Source: a bacterium
Lineage (GTDB): Bacteria > Vulcanimicrobiota > Xenobia > Xenobiales > Xenobiaceae
Assembly (NCBI GenBank): GCA_030535355.1
Contig: JAUNIO010000002.1
Span: 8,781-72,780 of the forward strand
Direction: 5' to 3'
Length of the DNA stretch: 64,000 bases
The notes below the pieces were generated by a model, which was not told the origin of the DNA, did not search any database, and saw only the letters and a list, made by a program, of their open reading frames with translations. The position numbers and the translations under genes were made by a program. Shown one piece after another: positions 21,595 to 35,403 of the stretch. Numbering within the stretch: the stretch's first letter is position 1; each line of letters opens with the position of its first letter.

Positions 21595-21627
21595 AAGCCC
21601 TTTCTCAGCGAAAGGGCTTATTTAATT
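21595..21627 (+). terminator. Rho-independent terminator-like hairpin (aagccctttctcagcgaaagggctt followed by ATTTAATT), then a 20-nt tandem direct repeat (ttaattcggg[g/a]aacacagct, twice).
   Basis: A perfect 9-bp stem with a T-rich tail. It is 310 nt downstream of the PLP-enzyme gene, so it may terminate a small transcript. Confidence 0.5.
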
Positions 21628-21713
21628 CGGGGAACACAGCTTTAATTCGGGAAACACAGCTGACTTACATTGCTGTTCTTTTCATAATAAGCCAAAATAT
21701 AGTATAATAAAAA

Positions 21714-23204
21714 ATGTTGCTAACCCAGCTACATTTTATCGAGGAGCCCACTAGGTTGGAAAACAGCGCCGCAATTGATCTAACCAAGCAAGAAAGCGAA
21801 AACCTTGAGCCGCATCTGGTCCCTTTTAAAAATCAGCGTCTAAAGCTCGGCGATTCTCTGCGCAAATGCCATCAGCTCTTCCCGCTCACCTGGAGCGGCC
21901 TGCTCACGCTGGCTGCCGGCGTAATAGGATGGTGCACCTTAGGCAGCCGCCACCGCGACTTGGTTATTTCAGCGGCATCTTTCATTTTAGGCTTGCTGGT
22001 GATCGTGCTTATGGTCTGCGTGCTGATCAATGCCCTGCGCCTGCACCTGCGCCTGCGCCGTGAAGAGCAGGATATAGGAACCTTAAAGCTGGAAACAGGC
22101 TATCCCCGCACCACCGACTATCAGCTGGAAATAGGTTACTTTCCCTTTACCGAAATTACCTGGAGCTGGACCTATCCAGTCCAAACCGACGTAGTGACTA
22201 CAAGTACATTCAAAACAATAACTGAAACCGTCACCGCTCAGCAGCGCTGCCAAGCCGATCACATCACCCGTCATTTTGTAGTTAAAGATATTATCGGCCT
22301 GGCGCGCATGGAATGGGAACGCACATTTCCCACCGCAGTAACCGTAATACCCAACCAAGAAAATTTCAGCGCTAACCAGGTTCTGCCCAGCGTCTCCGAT
22401 GGAGACGAAGATTCCAATCCTTACGGCGCTCCCAAAGGCGACCGCATAGAAATGCGCAAATACTCCAACGGAGATTCCTCGCGGGACATTATTTGGAAAA
22501 TCTATGCCCGCACCCGAAAACTCATGGTACGCATTCCCGAACGCGCTATCACCGCCCAGCCGCGTTCCTGCGCGTATCTAATCGGCGCGCACGGCGACAG
22601 CTCCAGCGCCAGTTTAGCCCGCACTATTTTGGAACGCCACATGCTGGGCGACAACTGGGGCTTTGGCGCAGACGGTACCCCCGGAGTGATTACCAATTTG
22701 GGACAGGCCATTCAGGCTATCGCTCAATCGGGCAATTACGCTTTAATGTCTGCCCACGAAGCCAAAATTACCAATCTCTCCGCCTTTCTCCGCGAAGCCG
22801 AAGCTATAGGATACAATAATTGCCTTATCTTTATTCCCTCACGGCTGGCCCCTCCCCCTCCGCCTATATTATCGCGCTGGCAGCGCTTATTTAATTCTCA
22901 AGAAGGCACCTGGCCTGACTGGGCCAAACCGGCCCGTCAAGCCCTCAATAGCTGCCACATGACAATCACCTGGCTCATGGGCGTAGAAAAAGACCCGCGC
23001 AAGCTGGCCTCAGCTACAGAGAAAGCGCCGCTTCCGCCCTGGCAGGAAAAACTCCAGCGATACGCTTTAGCGCCCAAAGACGCTGAAAGCGATACCTCTG
23101 TGGAAGTCGTTAAAGCTATAATAGGCGAAAGCACGCCCGTTTGGCTCTACGCCAGCGACAGCTGCCGCTTCCTAGTCTATAACAATATCTCCGAAGCACA
23201 ATAG
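21714..23204 (+). CDS. DUF58-family protein, the MoxR-partner class.
   Basis: It has N-terminal TM helices and the DUF58 signature (EMRKYSNGDSSRDIIWKIYARTRKLMVRIPE). Confidence 0.7.
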   Translation: MLLTQLHFIEEPTRLENSAAIDLTKQESENLEPHLVPFKNQRLKLGDSLRKCHQLFPLTWSGLLTLAAGVIGWCTLGSRHRDLVISAASFILGLLVIVLMVCVLINALRLHLRLRREEQDIGTLKLETGYPRTTDYQLEIGYFPFTEITWSWTYPVQTDVVTTSTFKTITETVTAQQRCQADHITRHFVVKDIIGLARMEWERTFPTAVTVIPNQENFSANQVLPSVSDGDEDSNPYGAPKGDRIEMRKYSNGDSSRDIIWKIYARTRKLMVRIPERAITAQPRSCAYLIGAHGDSSSASLARTILERHMLGDNWGFGADGTPGVITNLGQAIQAIAQSGNYALMSAHEAKITNLSAFLREAEAIGYNNCLIFIPSRLAPPPPPILSRWQRLFNSQEGTWPDWAKPARQALNSCHMTITWLMGVEKDPRKLASATEKAPLPPWQEKLQRYALAPKDAESDTSVEVVKAIIGESTPVWLYASDSCRFLVYNNISEAQ

Positions 23205-25738: not shown

Positions 25739-26812
25739 GTGATCGTGCCCAGGCATATAAATATGCGTTATGCAACGCAGACATTTAATGGAGGTTATAC
25801 CTTGGACGCCGCAGCGAATGCTCCCAACAGGGATCAATATTTAAACAATGCTTATGGTGTATTTCACACTTTGGAGCAACGCCTCAAACATGCGGTACGC
25901 GGCCGCGATAACGTTATCGATTTACTGCTCATCGCTTTAATGGCTGACGGCCACGTGCTTCTGGAAGATCACCCCGGCTCCGGTAAAACCACTTTGGCCA
26001 AAGCGCTGGGCGACTCCATTTACGATGACCGCAACAACCAAGAATTTGAGGCATTTCGGCGTATCCAATTCACGCCCGACCTCCTGCCCTCCGATATTAC
26101 AGGCATGACCATTTTCGAGCCTGAAAGCGCTACCTTCACATTCCGTCCTGGCCCGCTTTTCGCCTATATAGTCTTAGCCGACGAAATTAACCGCACCTCT
26201 CCGAAGGTACAGTCCGCCATGCTCGAAGCTATGGCGGAAAAGCAGGTAACCGTCGATAACGTTTCCCATAAACTGGGGGAGCTGTTCTTCGTCGTAGCCA
26301 CCCAAAACCCGCGCGACCAAGCGGGCACCTATCCTCTGCCTGTAGCCCAGCACGACCGCTTTTTATTTAAGATACGCATGACTTACATCGACCGCGACGC
26401 CGAGATCGACGTTTTGCGCAGCAGTCACGAGCGCAAAGCCCCCATTCCCAACAATCTGCCTCAGATCGCCGTCTCACAGATCATCGCTGCCCGGCGCACC
26501 ATAGATAGATTTGTCCGCGTGGATGAGCGCATCCAGGCCTGTCTGGTCGATATGGCCCGGGCCATCCGCCAATCCCCTAACGTCGCCCAGGGAGTCTCTA
26601 CCCGCAGTTTAGTGCTGATGGTACCAGCTCTGCAGGCCTGCGCCTTAAAACGGGCCCGCGATTTCGTCAGCGCCGAAGACGTCGCCTATCTGATACCTTA
26701 CGTTTTCGCCCATCGTCTGGAACTGGCTCCCGGCATAGACGATCCCATTAAAGTTATCCGCGACTGCTGCAAACCTTCTCTGGAGCAGCTGTGCCGCTCC
26801 ACGCTCAAATAG
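25739..26812 (+). CDS. MoxR-family AAA+ ATPase.
   Basis: It has Walker A (EDHPGSGKTTLAKALG) and Walker B (IVLADEINR), with the MoxR-typical length and context next to DUF58 and TgpA. Confidence 0.85.
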   Translation: MIVPRHINMRYATQTFNGGYTLDAAANAPNRDQYLNNAYGVFHTLEQRLKHAVRGRDNVIDLLLIALMADGHVLLEDHPGSGKTTLAKALGDSIYDDRNNQEFEAFRRIQFTPDLLPSDITGMTIFEPESATFTFRPGPLFAYIVLADEINRTSPKVQSAMLEAMAEKQVTVDNVSHKLGELFFVVATQNPRDQAGTYPLPVAQHDRFLFKIRMTYIDRDAEIDVLRSSHERKAPIPNNLPQIAVSQIIAARRTIDRFVRVDERIQACLVDMARAIRQSPNVAQGVSTRSLVLMVPALQACALKRARDFVSAEDVAYLIPYVFAHRLELAPGIDDPIKVIRDCCKPSLEQLCRSTLK

Positions 26813-26875
26813 CGCTCAACAACTATCAAGCTCTGCCAGGCATAGCTTCGCTAATGGCAGAGCGAAGTAATCATC

Positions 26876-28963
26876 ATGCAATTTCTAGGCGGAAACAGCG
26901 AAATGTTTGGATTTAAGACAAAACATACCAAGCGCGTTTTTATCGGCATAGCCTTAGCTTTGGCGCTAGGAGCTCCAGTCGAGTCGCGTCTTCCTCAGAC
27001 CGCCGAAACGACGGCTAAGCTAACGCTGTCCGTGGGCGAGATGCAAGAGCTGATGAAAAACGACAAGGACCTCATCGACCAGCGCACCCGGGCGGAAAAG
27101 ATGCTCAAAGCCAATGCCAAAGACTACAAAGCGCATCTGCTGCTCGGCTACGTCCTGCACCACGCCGAAGGCGATTTAGCCCGCGCCCGCTACCATTTGG
27201 ACAAATCGCATAAATATGTCTTAAAAGCTGTCGGCAACGATATGGAAGCCCGGCAGTTTTACGGTATTATCTGTTTCGAGCTGCTCATGGTGCTCACCGA
27301 AATGGACCAATACGAAGATAAAATCACTCTGCTGCGCGAGATGTCGTCCACAATGAGCAACAAAGAGCTGTGGATGTCAGAGATGGCCTGGCCGCTCATG
27401 AAACTGGATAAGGAAAAAGAAGCGCGCCAGATTATTCAGCAGATTCTCAGCAGCGGCAATCCCGGGGCCCGCATAAATGCCTGGAACACCCTAGGGGCCT
27501 TGGAATCCGATTTGGGCCACTATCAAGCCGCCTACGACGCCTTCGACGGTCTGCTCAAAGAGGCGGCCCGCTATAGCAAGCCCAACATAACTTTTTACCG
27601 CAACATGGGCGAAGCCTGCCTACCCTTAGGGCTTTATGAAGACGCCGAAAAATACTATTCCCAGGCGGCCAAACTGCCTTTCGAAGACGATTCCTTTTCC
27701 AATCCCTATCAAGATTTAACCAGCATCTACCTCTCCCAAGCCCGCTTCAGCGAAGCCATGAACGCTATGAAGAAAACGGTGGAATGGAGCAATGCCACCA
27801 AACCGTTCCTCTACCAGCAGTCCATGGCCGACAACACTCAGCTCAAAGGTATGCTGCTGCTGGAACTAGGGCTTCCCGCCGAAGCAGTCGATACCCTACA
27901 GCTGTTGGTACAGCGCCCCGATCGCCGCGGCGGCACTTCCCTGCGCATCGATCAGACAGAAGCCGGAAACCTGCTGTGCTGGCGCACCGCTCTGAAAACC
28001 AATTTGCAGCGCAACCAAGAGCGTTTGGCCGCCACGAGTTTTTTCAGCGGCGCTTTATCCCTAATCCGCTACGGCTGGCAGCGCTTAACCCAAGGCAAAA
28101 CCACGCTGAGCACCGATGCTATGTATGTCAATTTGGTCTGGGAAAATATTCAGATGCGCCGCCAAATCGACCAAGCGGAAAAGCGCATCGCCGCTCTTTC
28201 CGCCAACAGCCAGCGCATTCGCGCTTCCATGCTTCCCTATGATACCCAATCGGTCATCACCACGGAATGGATGCGCCCCAACCTCATGGGAATTTGGGGA
28301 ACTGGCCTAAGCCAAGCTGCTATCGACGATATTCGGCAAAAACCACCCGAAAGATACGCTGTGGCCGAACCCTTCCTGGCCGCGCTGCAGGGCGAAATCG
28401 CTTTTTTAAACGGCAGCTACCGCCGCAGTGCCGAACTGTTCAGCGTAGCTATGAAAACTCTGCCGCGTCAAGAAGCTTTGCTGCGCTATCGCACGGAAAC
28501 CCGTCTGGCCATGGCCTTGCTGAAATGCGGCAAAGAATCAGAAGCGCTGCAGCTGTTCCAGCACGTGATCAGCGGCGATGGAGCTATGCTGCGCGAAGCC
28601 GAGGCGCGTTTACCCATCATCGCCAAGGTAAATGCCTCCGAGCAGAGTTCAAGTTTTAATTCCGCAGTGCTCAAAGGCCTCAAGCGCTCTCCTCGTTTCA
28701 AAGTAGGTTCCCGGGGCCTGCAGCTGACGGTGGCATCAGCAGGCAAAGAAGATTTGCGCGTCGCCGTCAGCGACAGCAGCGGCAATTCCATTAAAGTTTT
28801 TCATGTATCCCTCAAAAAACCCAACGCACCGCTGGCCGAAGTAGCTTTGGCGGGAATCCACGATGGCCTGTGCGCTCCCAATATCAACCTGAGCGGGCTT
28901 GCCGACAGTCTCGACGGGACTATGAACAGCGCTAACGTGCGCGATCTAATTCAGTACTATTAA
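26876..28963 (+). CDS. Secreted TPR-like repeat protein (Bat-operon-like), paralog 1.
   Basis: It has a signal peptide (the true start may be M at 26906, MFGFKTKHTKRVFIGIALALALGAP) and is ~45% identical along its whole length to the 29828..31951 product. Confidence 0.7.
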   Translation: MQFLGGNSEMFGFKTKHTKRVFIGIALALALGAPVESRLPQTAETTAKLTLSVGEMQELMKNDKDLIDQRTRAEKMLKANAKDYKAHLLLGYVLHHAEGDLARARYHLDKSHKYVLKAVGNDMEARQFYGIICFELLMVLTEMDQYEDKITLLREMSSTMSNKELWMSEMAWPLMKLDKEKEARQIIQQILSSGNPGARINAWNTLGALESDLGHYQAAYDAFDGLLKEAARYSKPNITFYRNMGEACLPLGLYEDAEKYYSQAAKLPFEDDSFSNPYQDLTSIYLSQARFSEAMNAMKKTVEWSNATKPFLYQQSMADNTQLKGMLLLELGLPAEAVDTLQLLVQRPDRRGGTSLRIDQTEAGNLLCWRTALKTNLQRNQERLAATSFFSGALSLIRYGWQRLTQGKTTLSTDAMYVNLVWENIQMRRQIDQAEKRIAALSANSQRIRASMLPYDTQSVITTEWMRPNLMGIWGTGLSQAAIDDIRQKPPERYAVAEPFLAALQGEIAFLNGSYRRSAELFSVAMKTLPRQEALLRYRTETRLAMALLKCGKESEALQLFQHVISGDGAMLREAEARLPIIAKVNASEQSSSFNSAVLKGLKRSPRFKVGSRGLQLTVASAGKEDLRVAVSDSSGNSIKVFHVSLKKPNAPLAEVALAGIHDGLCAPNINLSGLADSLDGTMNSANVRDLIQYY

Positions 28964-29124
28964 ATTAAAATTTATTTTCATTTATCCAGCAACGCTTTGC
29001 CTAAGCTGCACCTGCCGTTCCTCGGCCTACCCTGCTGAAAGGAGACCAAGGCTCACTTATTCAGCCTTCACCGTGCCCAGCAGCCGATGGGTTAAAGCGC
29101 TGCTGGATTTAATTAGGAGTTCTC

Positions 29125-29787
29125 ATGGAATACATTCACCAGCTCATGTACTATTTTAGCGCCGAGGGCATCAAGGACATCATCACCTGGGGCGGACTAA
29201 TTATTCTGGTGGCTATCATATTTTCTGAAACCGGCCTCTTAATCGGTTTCTTTCTCCCCGGCGATTCTCTGCTGGTTATCTCGGGATTCGTAGCTTCGGC
29301 TTCCGACGGCACTCTGCACATAGGCAGTTTGCTCTTTTGGCTCTGCATCGCGGCCGTTTTAGGAGATACCACAGGTTATTATATCGGCAAAAAGGCCGGT
29401 GACGCCCTATATAACCGGCCGCAAACAAAATGGTTCCGGCGCGATCACCTGTTGAAAGCCAAGGCGTTTTACGAAAAATACGGAGGCATCACCATCGTAT
29501 TAGCGCGTTTCATGCCCTTTATACGCACGTTCGCTCCCACCGTGGCCGGAATCGCAAAAATGAACTACAGCAAATTCCTGTCCTTCAATATCTTCGGCGG
29601 CATCGGCTGGGTATGCTCGATGGTGCTGATCGGCTATTTCTTCGGTCAGATTCCCTTAGTGCAGCAGCATATCGAAAAAATACTGATTCTCATTATCGTG
29701 CTGTCGCTGCTGCCCATCGTCCTTCACGCCATTAAAGAGAAAAAAAAGGCCAACCTTCCCCCGGCAGCAGATGCTGACGCTAAATAA
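29125..29787 (+). CDS. DedA / SNARE-associated family membrane protein.
   Basis: 220 aa with multiple TM helices and DedA-like motifs (FLPGDSLLV, RFMPFIRTFAP). It has an AGGAG RBS. Confidence 0.8.
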   Translation: MEYIHQLMYYFSAEGIKDIITWGGLIILVAIIFSETGLLIGFFLPGDSLLVISGFVASASDGTLHIGSLLFWLCIAAVLGDTTGYYIGKKAGDALYNRPQTKWFRRDHLLKAKAFYEKYGGITIVLARFMPFIRTFAPTVAGIAKMNYSKFLSFNIFGGIGWVCSMVLIGYFFGQIPLVQQHIEKILILIIVLSLLPIVLHAIKEKKKANLPPAADADAK

Positions 29788-29827
29788 TTGGAGGCAGCGC
29801 AGATGGCGAAAATTGGAGGCAGCGCAG

Positions 29828-31951
29828 ATGGCGAAGTTTCTCAGGCAAAAGAAACAATTAGGCAGTTTGCTGGCAGGCACAGCGCTAGTCTTAGCATTGA
29901 GCGCTCCTTTAGCCGCTGCCCCACCTAAGCCTTCGCCTTCGCCTTCTGCCTCAGCTTCTGCGCGGCCCAAGGCCGCAGCCGCGGCCACAGTGGACACTTC
30001 TAAACCGCTGACCTTAAAATCTTTAATCGAAATAATCGACGGCGGCAAAAACTTAATCGATGAGCGCACCCACGCCGAACAGCTGCTCAAAGCCAATCCC
30101 AAAGATTATAAAGCCCACTTTTTGCTGGGTTACATCATGCACCGCGCTGAAGGAGATCTGCCCCGGGCCCGTTACCATCTGCAAAAAGCTAACAAGATTG
30201 CTCTGCGCTCTGCCAGAAAGGGCGACAAAGAAGCTCAGCAGCTTTATTTTGCCGTATCGGTCGAATTAGCCGAGGTTCTGGGCGAAATGGATCAGTACAG
30301 CGCTAAGATCAGAATGCTGCGCGAGATGTCCTCCTACACGCGCGATAATGCTGAGTTTACCGTGCAAATGGCCTGGCCGCTCATGAAACTGAATAAGGAA
30401 AAAGCCGCCCGCCAAGCCATCCAAAAGAGCCTCAGCAATGATGACGTATCAGTGCAGACCACAGCGTTAAACACTCTCGGTGCTCTAGAATCGTATTTGG
30501 GCCACCATCAGGCCGCTTACGACACTGGCAAAAAACTCCTGGAAAAAGCTAAAGGCAAAGACAAACCCAATCTGATAACCTATTATAGCAATATGGGATT
30601 AAACTGCCTGCCCCTGGGATACTACGAAGAAGCGGAAAAATACTTTTTACAAGCGGCCGACAGACCATTTAGCGACCACGCATATACCAACCCCCATACC
30701 CATCTTTGCTGGCTGTATCTAAGTCAAGCCCGCTTTAGTGAGACCATCAACTCTCTGCACAAAGCTGAACGGTGGAGCAGAGCCACCAAGCCCTTCCTCT
30801 ACCAGCAGTCGATCGCCGGTATAACTGAGCTTCAGGGAACCGTCTATTTGGAATTGGGTTTGCCGGAAAAAGCCGTGCAGACCTTAAGCTGGCTGGTCCA
30901 GCGCCCTGACCGCCGCGGCACTAATTCCACCCACGTCGATCAAACCGAAGCCGGCAACCTGCTGACCTGGCGCACGGCCTTATACGCCAATCTGCAGCGC
31001 AACCGCGAGCGCTTAGCCGCTACAGATTTTCGGAGCGGGGCGCTGACTTTAATAAGGTATGGCTGGCAGCGTCTGCGGCACGGGCAAGGCGAACTAAGCG
31101 CCGACGCCATCTACTTCAATTTAGTCTGGGACAATCTGCAAATGCGCCGCCAAATTGACCAGGCCGACAAGCGCATTGCCGCTCTAACCGCAGGCCATAA
31201 GCGCATCCGCGCCTCCATGCTCCCCTATTTCGATCAGTCCATAAACACTTCAGAATGGCTGCGCCCCAATCTGGTGGGAATATTGGGAACAGGTCTCAGC
31301 CAGGCGACCATAGATAAAATAAAGAAACGGCCTCCCGAACAATACGAAAAGCATAAGCCCTTCCTAGCCGTCCTGCAAGGGGAGGCCGCCTTTCTGAACG
31401 GCAGCTACCGGAAAAGTGCCGAACTGCTTAAGCAGGCGCTGCAGAGTTTACCGAAACAAGAGGCGCTCCTGCGCCTGCGCACCGAAACCCGCCTGGCCAT
31501 GGCCCTTTTAAAATGCGGCCAAGAAGCAGAAGCACTGCCCTTGCTAAAGCACGTCATCAGCCAAAACGGTGCCATGCTGCGCGAAGTAGGTGCCCGCCTG
31601 CCAGTTAAGCTGCAAATTGAGACGACCTTGCAAGGCAAGGATTTTAACGAAGAACTCATCCAAGGGATCCGCCGCTCCCCCCGCTTTCAAGTTGATTCTA
31701 GCGGTTTTGTGCTCTTAGTTACTTCAGCCAGCCCCAACTCGCTAAGGGTAACGGTCAGCGATGAAAGCGGCAATTCCTTTAAATCTTATAATGTCACCCT
31801 GCGCAGTTCCAGCACTCCTTTAGCGGAAATAGCGTTGGCGGGCATTCACGACGGCCTGTGCACTCCCAGCATCAGTCTCAGCGGCTTGGATGACAGCATC
31901 GACGGCTCCAACACCAGCATCGGTGTCCGAGAGCTAATTAAATACAAGTAA
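29828..31951 (+). CDS. Secreted TPR-like repeat protein, paralog 2.
   Basis: A signal peptide follows the ATG at 29828 (MAKFLRQKKQLGSLLAGTALVLALSAPLAAA). The ORF track extends upstream to 29771 across a tandemly duplicated RBS/start segment. Confidence 0.7.
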   Translation: MAKFLRQKKQLGSLLAGTALVLALSAPLAAAPPKPSPSPSASASARPKAAAAATVDTSKPLTLKSLIEIIDGGKNLIDERTHAEQLLKANPKDYKAHFLLGYIMHRAEGDLPRARYHLQKANKIALRSARKGDKEAQQLYFAVSVELAEVLGEMDQYSAKIRMLREMSSYTRDNAEFTVQMAWPLMKLNKEKAARQAIQKSLSNDDVSVQTTALNTLGALESYLGHHQAAYDTGKKLLEKAKGKDKPNLITYYSNMGLNCLPLGYYEEAEKYFLQAADRPFSDHAYTNPHTHLCWLYLSQARFSETINSLHKAERWSRATKPFLYQQSIAGITELQGTVYLELGLPEKAVQTLSWLVQRPDRRGTNSTHVDQTEAGNLLTWRTALYANLQRNRERLAATDFRSGALTLIRYGWQRLRHGQGELSADAIYFNLVWDNLQMRRQIDQADKRIAALTAGHKRIRASMLPYFDQSINTSEWLRPNLVGILGTGLSQATIDKIKKRPPEQYEKHKPFLAVLQGEAAFLNGSYRKSAELLKQALQSLPKQEALLRLRTETRLAMALLKCGQEAEALPLLKHVISQNGAMLREVGARLPVKLQIETTLQGKDFNEELIQGIRRSPRFQVDSSGFVLLVTSASPNSLRVTVSDESGNSFKSYNVTLRSSSTPLAEIALAGIHDGLCTPSISLSGLDDSIDGSNTSIGVRELIKYK

Positions 31952-32134
31952 GGTTTTATCTCTAGTCAGCTTAACACCATTTTCACGCCTATAGCGCAAT
32001 TAGAAAAAACGGCAGGAATTGCCGGCTTTTGAGTTTATGCTATAATATTCTGTAAAAAAATAAAGGATTAACATTGCCCAAGCCATTAGGCGCAGCCTGC
32101 GCAGGCGAAAAGCCCATGCGCCCAAGCCAGCCCA

Positions 32135-32887
32135 ATGGTCTTGCCTATTGCCTCAATAATTTCCATGCTACAAGAACCGATTATCCAAATGCACAACGTT
32201 AGCCTCATTTACCCCAACGGTACCCGAGGCCTTAATTCTATAGATATGACCATTAACCGCGGGGAGTTCGTCTTTCTCGTCGGCCACACCGGTTCCGGCA
32301 AATCCAGCCTGATGAAGCTTATTTATCGCGAACACGATCCAACCACAGGTGCCGTTTATGTAGAAGGCATAGAAATCAGCGATATGAAGCGCAGTCAGAT
32401 TCCCTTCCTGCGGCGGCGCATCGGGGTTATTTTCCAGGATTTCCGGCTCTTGGGACACAAAACAGTTTATGAAAATGTCGCTTACGCCTTACAGGTCACG
32501 GGAACGAGCCGCTACGTGATGCCCCGCAAAGTTACCAAAGCCCTAACCTTAGTCAATCTGCAGGACAAAGCCGACCGTTTTCCCAATCAGCTTTCCGGCG
32601 GCGAACAGCAGCGCGTGGCCATCGCCCGTGCCCTCATCAACGATCCCATTATCCTGCTGGCTGACGAGCCTACGGGAAACTTAGACCCCGATTCTTCCTG
32701 GGATATTATGCAGATTCTCTCTAAAGTCAACGTAAGCGGAACGACTGTAGTCGTGGCCACCCACAACCAGCAGCTGGTCGATGTCATGCAGAAGCGCGTT
32801 ATCGTCATGAACCGCGGTGAGATGGTACAGGACGTCGAACACGGCAAATACGCCATTTCCGCAGTTGGCCCACTGCCGTCGCTTTAA
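32135..32887 (+). CDS. ftsE: Cell-division ABC transporter ATP-binding protein FtsE. The true start is probably one of the internal Met codons at about 32165 or 32189.
   Basis: It has Walker A (GHTGSGKSS), the ABC signature ([15 protein letters not shown]) and Walker B ([12 protein letters not shown]). Confidence 0.9.
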
Positions 32888-32902
32888 TAAGGAGCATATT
32901 TC

Positions 32903-34234
32903 ATGGCTAAGAAAAACCTCCGAGAGGTCAAAGATAAGGCCAAAAACACAGCAGAATCCGCGGCCAATTCCCCAGCCGGACCTATGCAGACCGCCGCCGT
33001 CAGCGAAGCCGTAACCGCGGCAGCTCCTGCCCAAGCTGAAAGTGAAGAAATAACGGGGCAATCCGCCTCTGCTTCCGCAACCCAGCCGAATAACGACGGA
33101 CGTCAGGCCTCAAAACAGGCGGGCCTAAACAGCCAAACAGCGGATGGGGAAGCTCCGCCCCCCCCAGTGCTTAAGCCCTTGCCAGAGCAGCAGCCTAAGC
33201 TCACTATTACCAGCAAAGCCGTTTCCGTTCAAGAAAAGGGAGCGGCCTCCAGCAACAAGTTTCCCAGCATATCCGCAGCGGCAGCCCCAGCTGTTTCAGC
33301 TCCCGCGCCGTTAATTGGCGAAACAGAGCCTGCCGTCAAGCGCTATACTCCCTCTGGCGGTTATTACGTGGAATGTTTTCTGCGCGAAGTCGTAACCAAC
33401 ATCCGCCGCAACCCTATGATGAGCATCGCTTCTATTTCCACGGTCATGGTCTTAGCGCTCATTCTAGGTTTATTTACAATCGTGGTTGCCAATTTAGATC
33501 GCCTAGCTAACGAATTGGCCGGGGAGATGCAGATCAAAGTTTACATGGCCAGCACATTCCCAGCCGAGGAAGCCGAAGAATGTCAAAAGCGCATTCTCAA
33601 AATTGAGCACGTTACCGGAGCCAAATTCATTCCCAAAGATGAAGCCTTCGCCAGCCTGCGCGACCGCTTGGGAGGGCGCATCAGTTTGGAGGACCTGGAA
33701 CAAAATCCCCTGCCCGATGCTTACCAAGTTCCCGTCGATGATCCGCAATATTTAGAGCAGGTGGCTCAGCAGCTGCACGAGATCACTGCCGTCGATAAAG
33801 TCGATTACGGCCGGGAAGAAGCCAGCAAGCTGCTGGCCCTCAATAAAGCCGTGCGCACGGTGGGCTTTATCATCCTAATCCTGCTTTTAGCTTCGACAGT
33901 GCTAATCGTGAGCAATACCATCCGCCTCACCGTCTTTGCCCGGCGCAAAGAGATCGATATTATGCAGTTAGTTGGTGCCGCCGATTGGTTTATCCGCTGG
34001 CCTTTTATACTAGAAGGCGTCGCGCAGGGCTTTATAGGCGCGGGACTATCCGCTTTAGCCCTCGATTTAGGCTACCGCATGGTGGTGCCGCATTTCAGAC
34101 ATTCCATAGCTTTTATCCCCGTCATTGAGCCTAATGAGATTATGCCCTATCTCTGTCTCGGTTTAGCTTTAATGGGCTGCGCGGTTGGAGCGTTAGGAAG
34201 TCTCATATCGGTCAACCGCTATCTAAAGGCTTAA
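32903..34234 (+). CDS. ftsX: Cell-division permease FtsX with a ~150-aa low-complexity Ala/Pro/Ser-rich N-terminal extension.
   Basis: Its position after ftsE, a TM helix plus extracytoplasmic loop, and three C-terminal TM helices all fit FtsX. Confidence 0.8.
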   Translation: MAKKNLREVKDKAKNTAESAANSPAGPMQTAAVSEAVTAAAPAQAESEEITGQSASASATQPNNDGRQASKQAGLNSQTADGEAPPPPVLKPLPEQQPKLTITSKAVSVQEKGAASSNKFPSISAAAAPAVSAPAPLIGETEPAVKRYTPSGGYYVECFLREVVTNIRRNPMMSIASISTVMVLALILGLFTIVVANLDRLANELAGEMQIKVYMASTFPAEEAEECQKRILKIEHVTGAKFIPKDEAFASLRDRLGGRISLEDLEQNPLPDAYQVPVDDPQYLEQVAQQLHEITAVDKVDYGREEASKLLALNKAVRTVGFIILILLLASTVLIVSNTIRLTVFARRKEIDIMQLVGAADWFIRWPFILEGVAQGFIGAGLSALALDLGYRMVVPHFRHSIAFIPVIEPNEIMPYLCLGLALMGCAVGALGSLISVNRYLKA

Positions 34235-35403
34235 TGCGTATGAAAAGAAGTCCCGCTTCCGTTTGGCCCATTTTGCTCTGCCTTAGCCTCTGCCTTAGCG
34301 TTAGCTCTCCTATTTTCGCGCAGGACCCCGGCGAAGTGCGCGAAGACCTGCGCGAAAAGAAGGGAGAGCTGCGCTACCAGCAAAGCCGCTTAGACACGCT
34401 CAACGAGCGCGAACGCGATTTATCAAGACAGCTCAGCGATTCCCAATACGACCTTCAGGAAAGCCGCACCGCGTTAAACAACACCGTGGCCCGTTTGGAA
34501 AGTGCCCAGGCCCGCTATGAAGATATTCAGACCCGGCTCAGCGTGGCCACCAAAAAATACCGCAGCAGCCAAGCCCTGCTGGGGCAGCGCCTGCGCGATA
34601 TTTACATGCAGGGCGATATGGGCTATCTGTTGGTCCTTCTGGGATCGCAGAGCTTTACAGATTTTCTGGATTATGCTCACTACATCGCTATTATCGTTAA
34701 CCGCGACTACGAACTGCTAGATGAAGTGCGCCAGCTGAGAGCCGAGCTGCACAGCCAGGCCCAAGCCGCCCAGGAAGCGCTGATCGAGATGCGCCAGCTG
34801 CGCGACGATCAGGAAGCCCGCGTCAGCCGTCTGAGCAAAATTGAGCAGCGCCGCGCCGCTCTGCTCAGCGACGTGCAGAGCCAGCGCGCAAAAGTGGCTC
34901 AATACGTGACAGAACTGGAAGGCAGCACTCAAGAGTTAGAAAACAAGCTGCACAGAACGCTGGTCAAACGCCAGTCGCACGCCCGGCCGCATATCCCTCA
35001 AAAGAAGCGCACCTGGGGAACTGGCCGTTTTATAACCCCGGCAGAAGGTCCCATAACTTCTCCCTACGGGTACCGCGTGCACCCCATATTTGGGACTCTG
35101 CGCTTTCACTCGGGAATCGATATTGGAGCTTATTACGGTTCCAGCATTTTAGCCGCTGACAGCGGCATAGTAATCGAAGCCGGCTGGATAGGCGGTTACG
35201 GCAATACAGTCATGATCGATCACGGCGGAGGCTACAGCACGCTCTACGGCCACTGTTCCCAGCTTTACGTGCGCAACGGGCAAATGGTCCGTCAGGGAGA
35301 GCCTATCGCCGCTGTGGGCAGTACCGGCAATTCTACAGGGCCGCACCTGCATTTTGAGGTGCGCATCAACGGCGATCCCGTCGATCCCTTAGGGTTTATT
35401 TAG
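34234..35403 (+). CDS. Coiled-coil M23 (LytM) metallopeptidase, the EnvC/PcsB/RipC-like FtsEX partner. The catalytic residues are intact.
   Basis: It has a signal peptide, a long coiled coil and C-terminal HSGIDI...YGHCS...HLHFEV. Confidence 0.8.
   Translation: MRMKRSPASVWPILLCLSLCLSVSSPIFAQDPGEVREDLREKKGELRYQQSRLDTLNERERDLSRQLSDSQYDLQESRTALNNTVARLESAQARYEDIQTRLSVATKKYRSSQALLGQRLRDIYMQGDMGYLLVLLGSQSFTDFLDYAHYIAIIVNRDYELLDEVRQLRAELHSQAQAAQEALIEMRQLRDDQEARVSRLSKIEQRRAALLSDVQSQRAKVAQYVTELEGSTQELENKLHRTLVKRQSHARPHIPQKKRTWGTGRFITPAEGPITSPYGYRVHPIFGTLRFHSGIDIGAYYGSSILAADSGIVIEAGWIGGYGNTVMIDHGGGYSTLYGHCSQLYVRNGQMVRQGEPIAAVGSTGNSTGPHLHFEVRINGDPVDPLGFI

Follow-up and report, generated by a model that had tools for sequence, protein, structure and literature searches.

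In the window, that is, the whole 64-kb stretch of DNA that was analysed, a gene for a DedA/VTT-domain membrane protein (dedA) lies between two paralogous genes, TPR1 and TPR2, and is directly followed by the latter (Table 1). The original prediction had labelled the downstream genes as DedA and a second TPR paralog, and both labels are confirmed by the Pfam TPR matches of the two paralogs, by their sequence identity and by the VTT/DedA domain of the product encoded between them. The end of dedA and the start of TPR2 meet at a 25-nt sequence that is present twice, so that a complete set of translation initiation signals is found in each copy.

Table 1. Coordinates of the two repeat copies and of the genes, start codons and open reading frame around them
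Feature	Position	Strand	Description
TPR1 (upstream paralog)	26903-28963	+	58% amino acid identity to TPR2 over 705 aa; Pfam TPR
dedA (DedA/VTT-domain membrane protein)	29125-29787	+	220 aa; Pfam PF09335, E = 9e-19
ATG within the end of dedA	29771-29773	+	In frame with TPR2 in the two-copy allele only
Copy 1 of the 25-nt unit	29786-29810	+	SD1 GGAGG 29790-29794; ATG1 29803-29805
Copy 2 of the 25-nt unit	29811-29835	+	SD2 GGAGG 29815-29819; ATG2 29828-29830
Decoy ORF	29803-29928	+	41 codons plus TAA (29926-29928); out of frame with TPR2
TPR2	29828-31951	+	707 aa; Pfam TPR matches; start at ATG2

The repeat and the gene starts around it

Direct reading of positions 29786-29835 of the forward strand revealed the unit AATTGGAGGCAGCGCAGATGGCGAA twice, head to tail, with zero mismatches between the copies. 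Tandem Repeats Finder delimited the same interval (period 25, 2.0 copies, 100% matches, 0 indels, score 100), which was the best short repeat of the window. Thus, the perfect 25-nt tandem duplication that had been predicted here was recovered at exactly the same coordinates. With up to three mismatches allowed, these two copies were the only ones within 64 kb, and none was expected on the basis of 100 shuffles. By our own arithmetic, the number of perfect 25-nt tandem repeats expected by chance is 64000 x 4^-25, or ~6e-11 per window.

The copies meet at ...GATGGCGAA/AATTGGAGG... (GCGAA/AATTGG, the slash marking the boundary), and an example of a 31-mer spanning this two-copy junction is GCAGCGCAGATGGCGAAAATTGGAGGCAGCG. 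The edges of a single-copy allele would read TAAAT/AATTGG...GCGAA/GTTTC. The repeat can be neither extended nor rotated (29785 is t and 29810 is a; 29836 is g and 29811 is a), and because these flanking bases differ, microhomology is absent from the junction. A mobile element or the footprint of an insertion was rejected, since the unit has only 25 nt and no further copies and is identical to the sequence adjacent to it.

Other tandem repeats were also observed in the window. A second short tandem duplication is located at 21621-21661 (20 nt, 2.0 copies, one mismatch: TTTAATTCGGG[G/A]AACACAGC); it is intergenic, closely preceded by a hairpin-plus-T-run and followed by a TATAAT-like box and an ORF starting near 21756. 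In addition, a tandem repeat with a 254-nt period at 7433-7919 (1.9 copies, 93% identical) probably corresponds to repeated domains in a large ORF.

Within each copy of the 25-nt unit, GGAGG is followed by an 8-nt spacer and an ATG, in agreement with the previous suggestion that both signals had been duplicated. SD-like motifs were found upstream of most long ORFs in the window by a crude test that is biased towards finding SDs; therefore, GGAGG-8-ATG appears to be a normal strong start in the window. The coding sequence of dedA is unaltered by the duplication. Its stop codon had been described as abutting the repeat, and the two are indeed adjacent, but they do not merely abut, as the last two bases of the TAA at 29785-29787 are the first two nucleotides of copy 1. 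Neither a forward-strand terminator-like site nor a convincing promoter-like site was found in the dedA-TPR2 interval, and the absence of the former fits a possible co-transcription of dedA and TPR2.

ATG2 opens the 707-aa protein MAKFLRQKKQLGSLLAGTALVLALSAPLAAAPPKPS..., which is the same with or without the duplication. Its N-terminus is signal-peptide-like and consists of MAKFLRQKKQ and a hydrophobic stretch, followed by a Pro/Ser/Ala-rich linker. This second ATG had been considered the real start of TPR2, and the evidence is in favour of it: the NCBI annotation starts at the same position, and the paralog TPR1 as well as the orthologs have the same short, basic N-terminus and then a hydrophobic stretch. 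The linker, which is located directly after the signal-peptide-like region, is missing in TPR1 (a 19-aa alignment gap). A GCCTTC hexamer repeat (3.7 copies, 29929-29951, within 29900-29990) encodes part of this linker, PPKPSPSPSASASARPKAAAAAT.

ATG1 and ATG2 are in different frames because they are 25 nt apart. The ORF opened by ATG1 (MAKIGGSADGEVSQAKETIRQFAGRHSASLSIERSFSRCPT) extends over SD2 and ATG2, and its end lies 98 nt into TPR2. An out-of-frame ORF starting at this first ATG had been anticipated with a length of 40 codons; the ORF is present, whereas its length is 41 sense codons. No Pfam match was obtained for the 41-aa peptide. This ORF lacks conservation and any family match and owes its existence entirely to the duplication; therefore, it is probably not a real gene.

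The start of TPR2 has been annotated in two different ways. On a Logan contig of the same strain (described below), the gene call starts at 29771 and gives a 726-aa protein overlapping dedA, vs the start at 29828 and 707 aa in the NCBI record. An exact look-up of the 707-aa product yielded no recorded gene position. The two gene callers differ because the duplication brings the ATG at 29771 into frame. The sequence upstream of this ATG is CCTTCCCCCGGCAGCAG, which contains no SD; the extended 726-aa protein is doubted for this reason, and the start at 29771 is probably an annotation artefact. The start annotation of the TPR2 gene is where the duplication has its practical consequence.

Strain distribution and age of the duplication

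The 90%-identity cluster of TPR2, drawn from about 15 billion proteins, contains three sequences that represent two strains. The window strain is also present as the Logan contig SRR24915802_41814 (hereafter L001; 23.5 kb), which has both copies and matches the window along 8122 nt with 100% identity. The sole other strain on record, L002 (Logan SRR33322319), has a TPR2 that is 97% identical and DNA that is 95.45% identical over 8529 nt, and it carries exactly one copy (...gctaaatAATTGGAGGCAGCGCAGATGGCGAAgcttctc...). Thus, the copy number across the two known strains is 1 vs 2.

Such a difference might result from an assembly or sequencing artefact, the true genome of the window strain being single-copy. 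The window is part of a metagenome-assembled genome (its protein record reads 'MAG: hypothetical protein Q4F00_00790 [bacterium]'), and this MAG and the Logan contig may share reads, which would make them independent assemblies but perhaps not independent data. On the other hand, the two assembly pipelines (MAG and Logan SRR24915802) yielded an identical 50 nt, and the Logan contig is recorded for 2 samples. It could also be reasoned from the sequence that the two 25-nt copies contain no repeated k-mer of at least 26 nt; therefore, they form a simple de Bruijn path with no loop, and k-mers across the GCGAA/AATTGG junction must exist in the reads. Moreover, the entire 50 nt is short enough for one short read. 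Judged at the assembly level, an assembler artefact is unlikely, and the chance that the true genome has a single copy appears close to negligible.

In the alignment with L002, copy 1 is placed as a 25-nt insertion, i.e. as the extra sequence relative to the single-copy allele. This insertion is the sole indel of more than 1 nt in 8.5 kb, and the flanks are otherwise collinear. It is contained in the longest mismatch-free tract between the window and L002 (29557-29836, 255 aligned nt excluding the duplication). In a 9.5-kb comparison of the two strains there were 394 mismatches with a mean spacing of about 24 nt, and a Poisson estimate puts the chance of finding a 255-nt mismatch-free tract at any place in the alignment at about 0.01. 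The tract takes in the final 76 codons of dedA, with their synonymous sites, and the TPR2 initiation region. It could be due to recent inter-strain recombination or to constraint, for example by an internal promoter or by an mRNA element that serves TPR2.

A more distant ortholog, L003 (67% amino acid identity), has an unrelated 56-nt spacer between dedA and TPR2, with one GAGG-ATG and no repeat. The upstream ORF that begins at ATG1 in the window is absent from both L002 and L003. When JGI metagenome contigs were searched with an exact 23-mer from the unit, no match was found.

Previously, the exactness of the repeat had been taken to mean that the duplication is either very recent or maintained. 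The first part of this proposal is supported and the second is not, in view of the single copy in L002 and the repeat-free ortholog in L003. Exactness over 25 nt is itself a weak sign of recency, because at a strain divergence of ~4.5% about 1.1 differences would be expected between the two copies, and the probability of observing none would be about 0.3 even if they had existed since the strain split. The argument for recency is carried by the single-copy state of L002 at 95.5% identity, the identity of the surrounding 255 nt and the fact that no other carrier is known.

The same comparisons bear on the possibility that the duplication is a maintained regulatory element, in which a selected decoy start or upstream ORF tunes the translation of TPR2. 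This possibility is consistent with two copies that are both intact and identical, with a decoy whose SD and ATG are of full strength and for which accessibility is predicted, and with the observation that short start-site duplications can shift protein yield several-fold, as reported for argB (PMC6941894). However, the element is missing in the 95.5%-identical L002 and in the 67% ortholog L003, and no other carrier was found in the 90% cluster (about 15 billion proteins) or in JGI metagenome contigs. The stop of the decoy ORF, 98 nt past ATG2, implies no coupling into TPR2, the decoy peptide matches no family, and identity of the two 25-nt copies would be expected by chance in a young duplication. 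We regard a maintained element as extremely improbable.

With regard to polarity, we infer a gain in the window strain rather than a loss in L002, although the spacer of the outgroup is not alignable; on the sequences compared here, the two-copy state is not conserved, whichever polarity holds. The ancestral allele would have consisted of the dedA stop, GGAGG, 8 nt and ATG, and in the derived allele this initiation cassette would have been doubled, 25 nt apart. It is very probable that the repeat is a real, young and strain-specific 25-bp tandem duplication on the TPR2 initiation region, which arose by a spontaneous replication or repair error, and that it is no conserved regulatory device.

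Predicted effect on translation of TPR2

From -17 to +8, counted from each ATG, the two initiation sites have the same sequence. In its anatomy, the duplication adds a decoy start whose initiation context does not differ from that of ATG2. A ribosome that initiates translation covers about -20 to +15. An initiation complex on ATG1 would cover SD2 (29815-29819); therefore, ATG1 and ATG2 would be expected to compete. Two initiation complexes could not sit side by side, and ribosomes would be split between the decoy ATG1 and ATG2. Those that finish dedA, whose stop is 15 nt upstream of ATG1, would reach ATG1 first. Ribosomes starting at ATG1 would then read across SD2 and ATG2 out of frame, terminate 98 nt beyond ATG2, a distance too long for re-initiation there, and produce a 41-aa junk peptide. 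The most probable net result would be a modest fall in TPR2 synthesis, up to about two-fold, and the allele would be neutral to slightly hypomorphic. It would also be able to revert through loss of one copy.

In terms of predicted opening energy, ATG1 was 2.3-6 kcal/mol easier to open than ATG2, and across four context sizes ATG2 differed from the start of the single-copy allele by no more than about 3 kcal/mol. These energies offer weak support only, because the predictions vary with context length. Minimum free energy folds and unpaired probabilities for one vs two copies gave no clear structural switch. A reduced TPR2 output in the presence of two copies is slightly favoured, and an output without meaningful change seems somewhat unlikely. 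An increase, which the analogy with argB would suggest, is unlikely. A modulation of translation, as had been suggested for the decoy start and small ORF, is plausible as a mechanism, but the direction of the effect is uncertain, because the 38-bp argB duplication that serves as precedent raised expression.

Comparison with known systems and the TPR2 family

The closest known case that we found is E. coli argB, in which a duplication of 38 bp that begins 13 bp before the start codon appeared in laboratory evolution; mutations upstream of argB, this duplication among them, increased ArgB 2.6-8.2-fold (Morgenthaler et al., 2019, eLife, PMC6941894). Both the argB and the TPR2 duplications are tens of bp long, are arranged head to tail and span the ribosome-binding region and the start codon. 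In both cases the length is not a multiple of 3, which results in an out-of-frame upstream copy of the start, and both arose within a lineage and are not conserved. The differences are that the argB duplication was selected, that the argB upstream mutations acted by relieving mRNA structure and that argB has no canonical SD (PMC6941894), whereas TPR2 has a strong GGAGG SD and no selection is evident. In the literature, no exact precedent was found that combines a tandem duplication, a Shine-Dalgarno sequence, a start codon and a frame difference, and it was a broader search that gave argB. A paper on indels in pseudogenes (PMC6054270) provided no usable share of insertions that are tandem duplications.

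Contingency loci were considered as a second class of related systems. As in such loci, the copy number of a repeat near a start differs between close strains, the gene encodes a putatively exported protein and the bacterium looks host-associated. However, contingency loci are multi-unit arrays that switch a gene on or off via reading frame or promoter spacing, whereas here the two known strains have one or two 25-nt copies, and either allele preserves the complete gene in frame with an SD of its own. No on/off switching of the phase-variable type is therefore encoded, since GGAGG-8nt-ATG is in frame with the full TPR2 in either allele.

Another reading is a reversible switch in which cells of a population flip between one and two copies and thereby differ in the amount of a secreted or surface TPR protein. 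High rates of loss are known for tandem duplications, the one-copy and two-copy alleles are found in near-identical sequence backgrounds, and the TPR2 product looks exported. Against such a switch, just two copy-number states have been observed, in two strains; SD, ATG and ORF are intact and in frame in both alleles, which leaves no ON/OFF frame switch, and the multi-unit array that is typical of contingency loci is absent from the window. A reversible copy-number switch is very improbable. A more far-reaching idea is that the two-copy allele acts as an adaptive and readily reversible 'dimmer' of the secreted TPR protein, in an uncultured lineage of gut type that has been poorly sampled. Cells with one and with two copies would then live side by side, and the ribosome flow from dedA to TPR2 would depend on copy number; we consider this very unlikely.

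Leader ORFs and bicistronic coupling designs also resemble the locus, in that a short upstream ORF would be translated across the SD of the main gene. In coupling designs and leader peptides, which are conserved, the short ORF stops at the main start or close to it, or else a terminator or anti-SD structure is controlled. In contrast, the decoy ORF overlaps TPR2 out of frame by 98 nt, lacks conservation and merely resulted from the duplication; thus, neither a conserved upstream ORF nor a stop at or just before the main start is present. What is present, namely identical head-to-tail copies and a single-copy allele with collinear flanks in a close relative, is characteristic of short tandem duplications. 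The TPR2 duplication adds one more example to a well-known class of mutations, the spontaneous short tandem duplication polymorphism.

Only 16 detectable homologs of TPR2 were identified among 5.8 billion clustered proteins, and a pattern-based scan of GTDB species-representative genomes confirmed no TPR2 relative. Distant homologs with 33-34% identity are labelled Candidatus Bruticola (Xenobia, Vulcanimicrobiota), which gives no more than a hint at the lineage. A TPR2 gene between dedA and ftsE was restricted to the window strain, L002 and L003. Relatives beyond L003 carry just one TPR gene, which is located after MoxR, and lack the dedA-TPR2 junction; for example, dedA is directly followed by ftsE in L007 (6002-7405), whose sole TPR gene follows MoxR. 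The orthologs P0003, P0006 and P0008 are in the MoxR-adjacent position of the TPR1 type and are uninformative on the dedA-TPR2 junction. Because distant relatives have one TPR gene, TPR2 is a young, lineage-specific paralog of the MoxR-adjacent TPR1. The neighbourhood as a whole, consisting of a MoxR-type AAA+ ATPase, one or more secreted TPR proteins, DedA, FtsE, FtsX and a PcsB-like M23 peptidase, is conserved in the window (25763-35369) and in L002, L005, L007 and L008, and the lineage with this neighbourhood is very sparsely sampled.

The general importance of the duplication is little. It is a clean natural case in which a whole initiation cassette has been copied, and it could provide a small test case for start-site competition. 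Polymorphism of the allele within populations, if present, would turn it into a modest example of copy-number expression tuning in an uncultured lineage.
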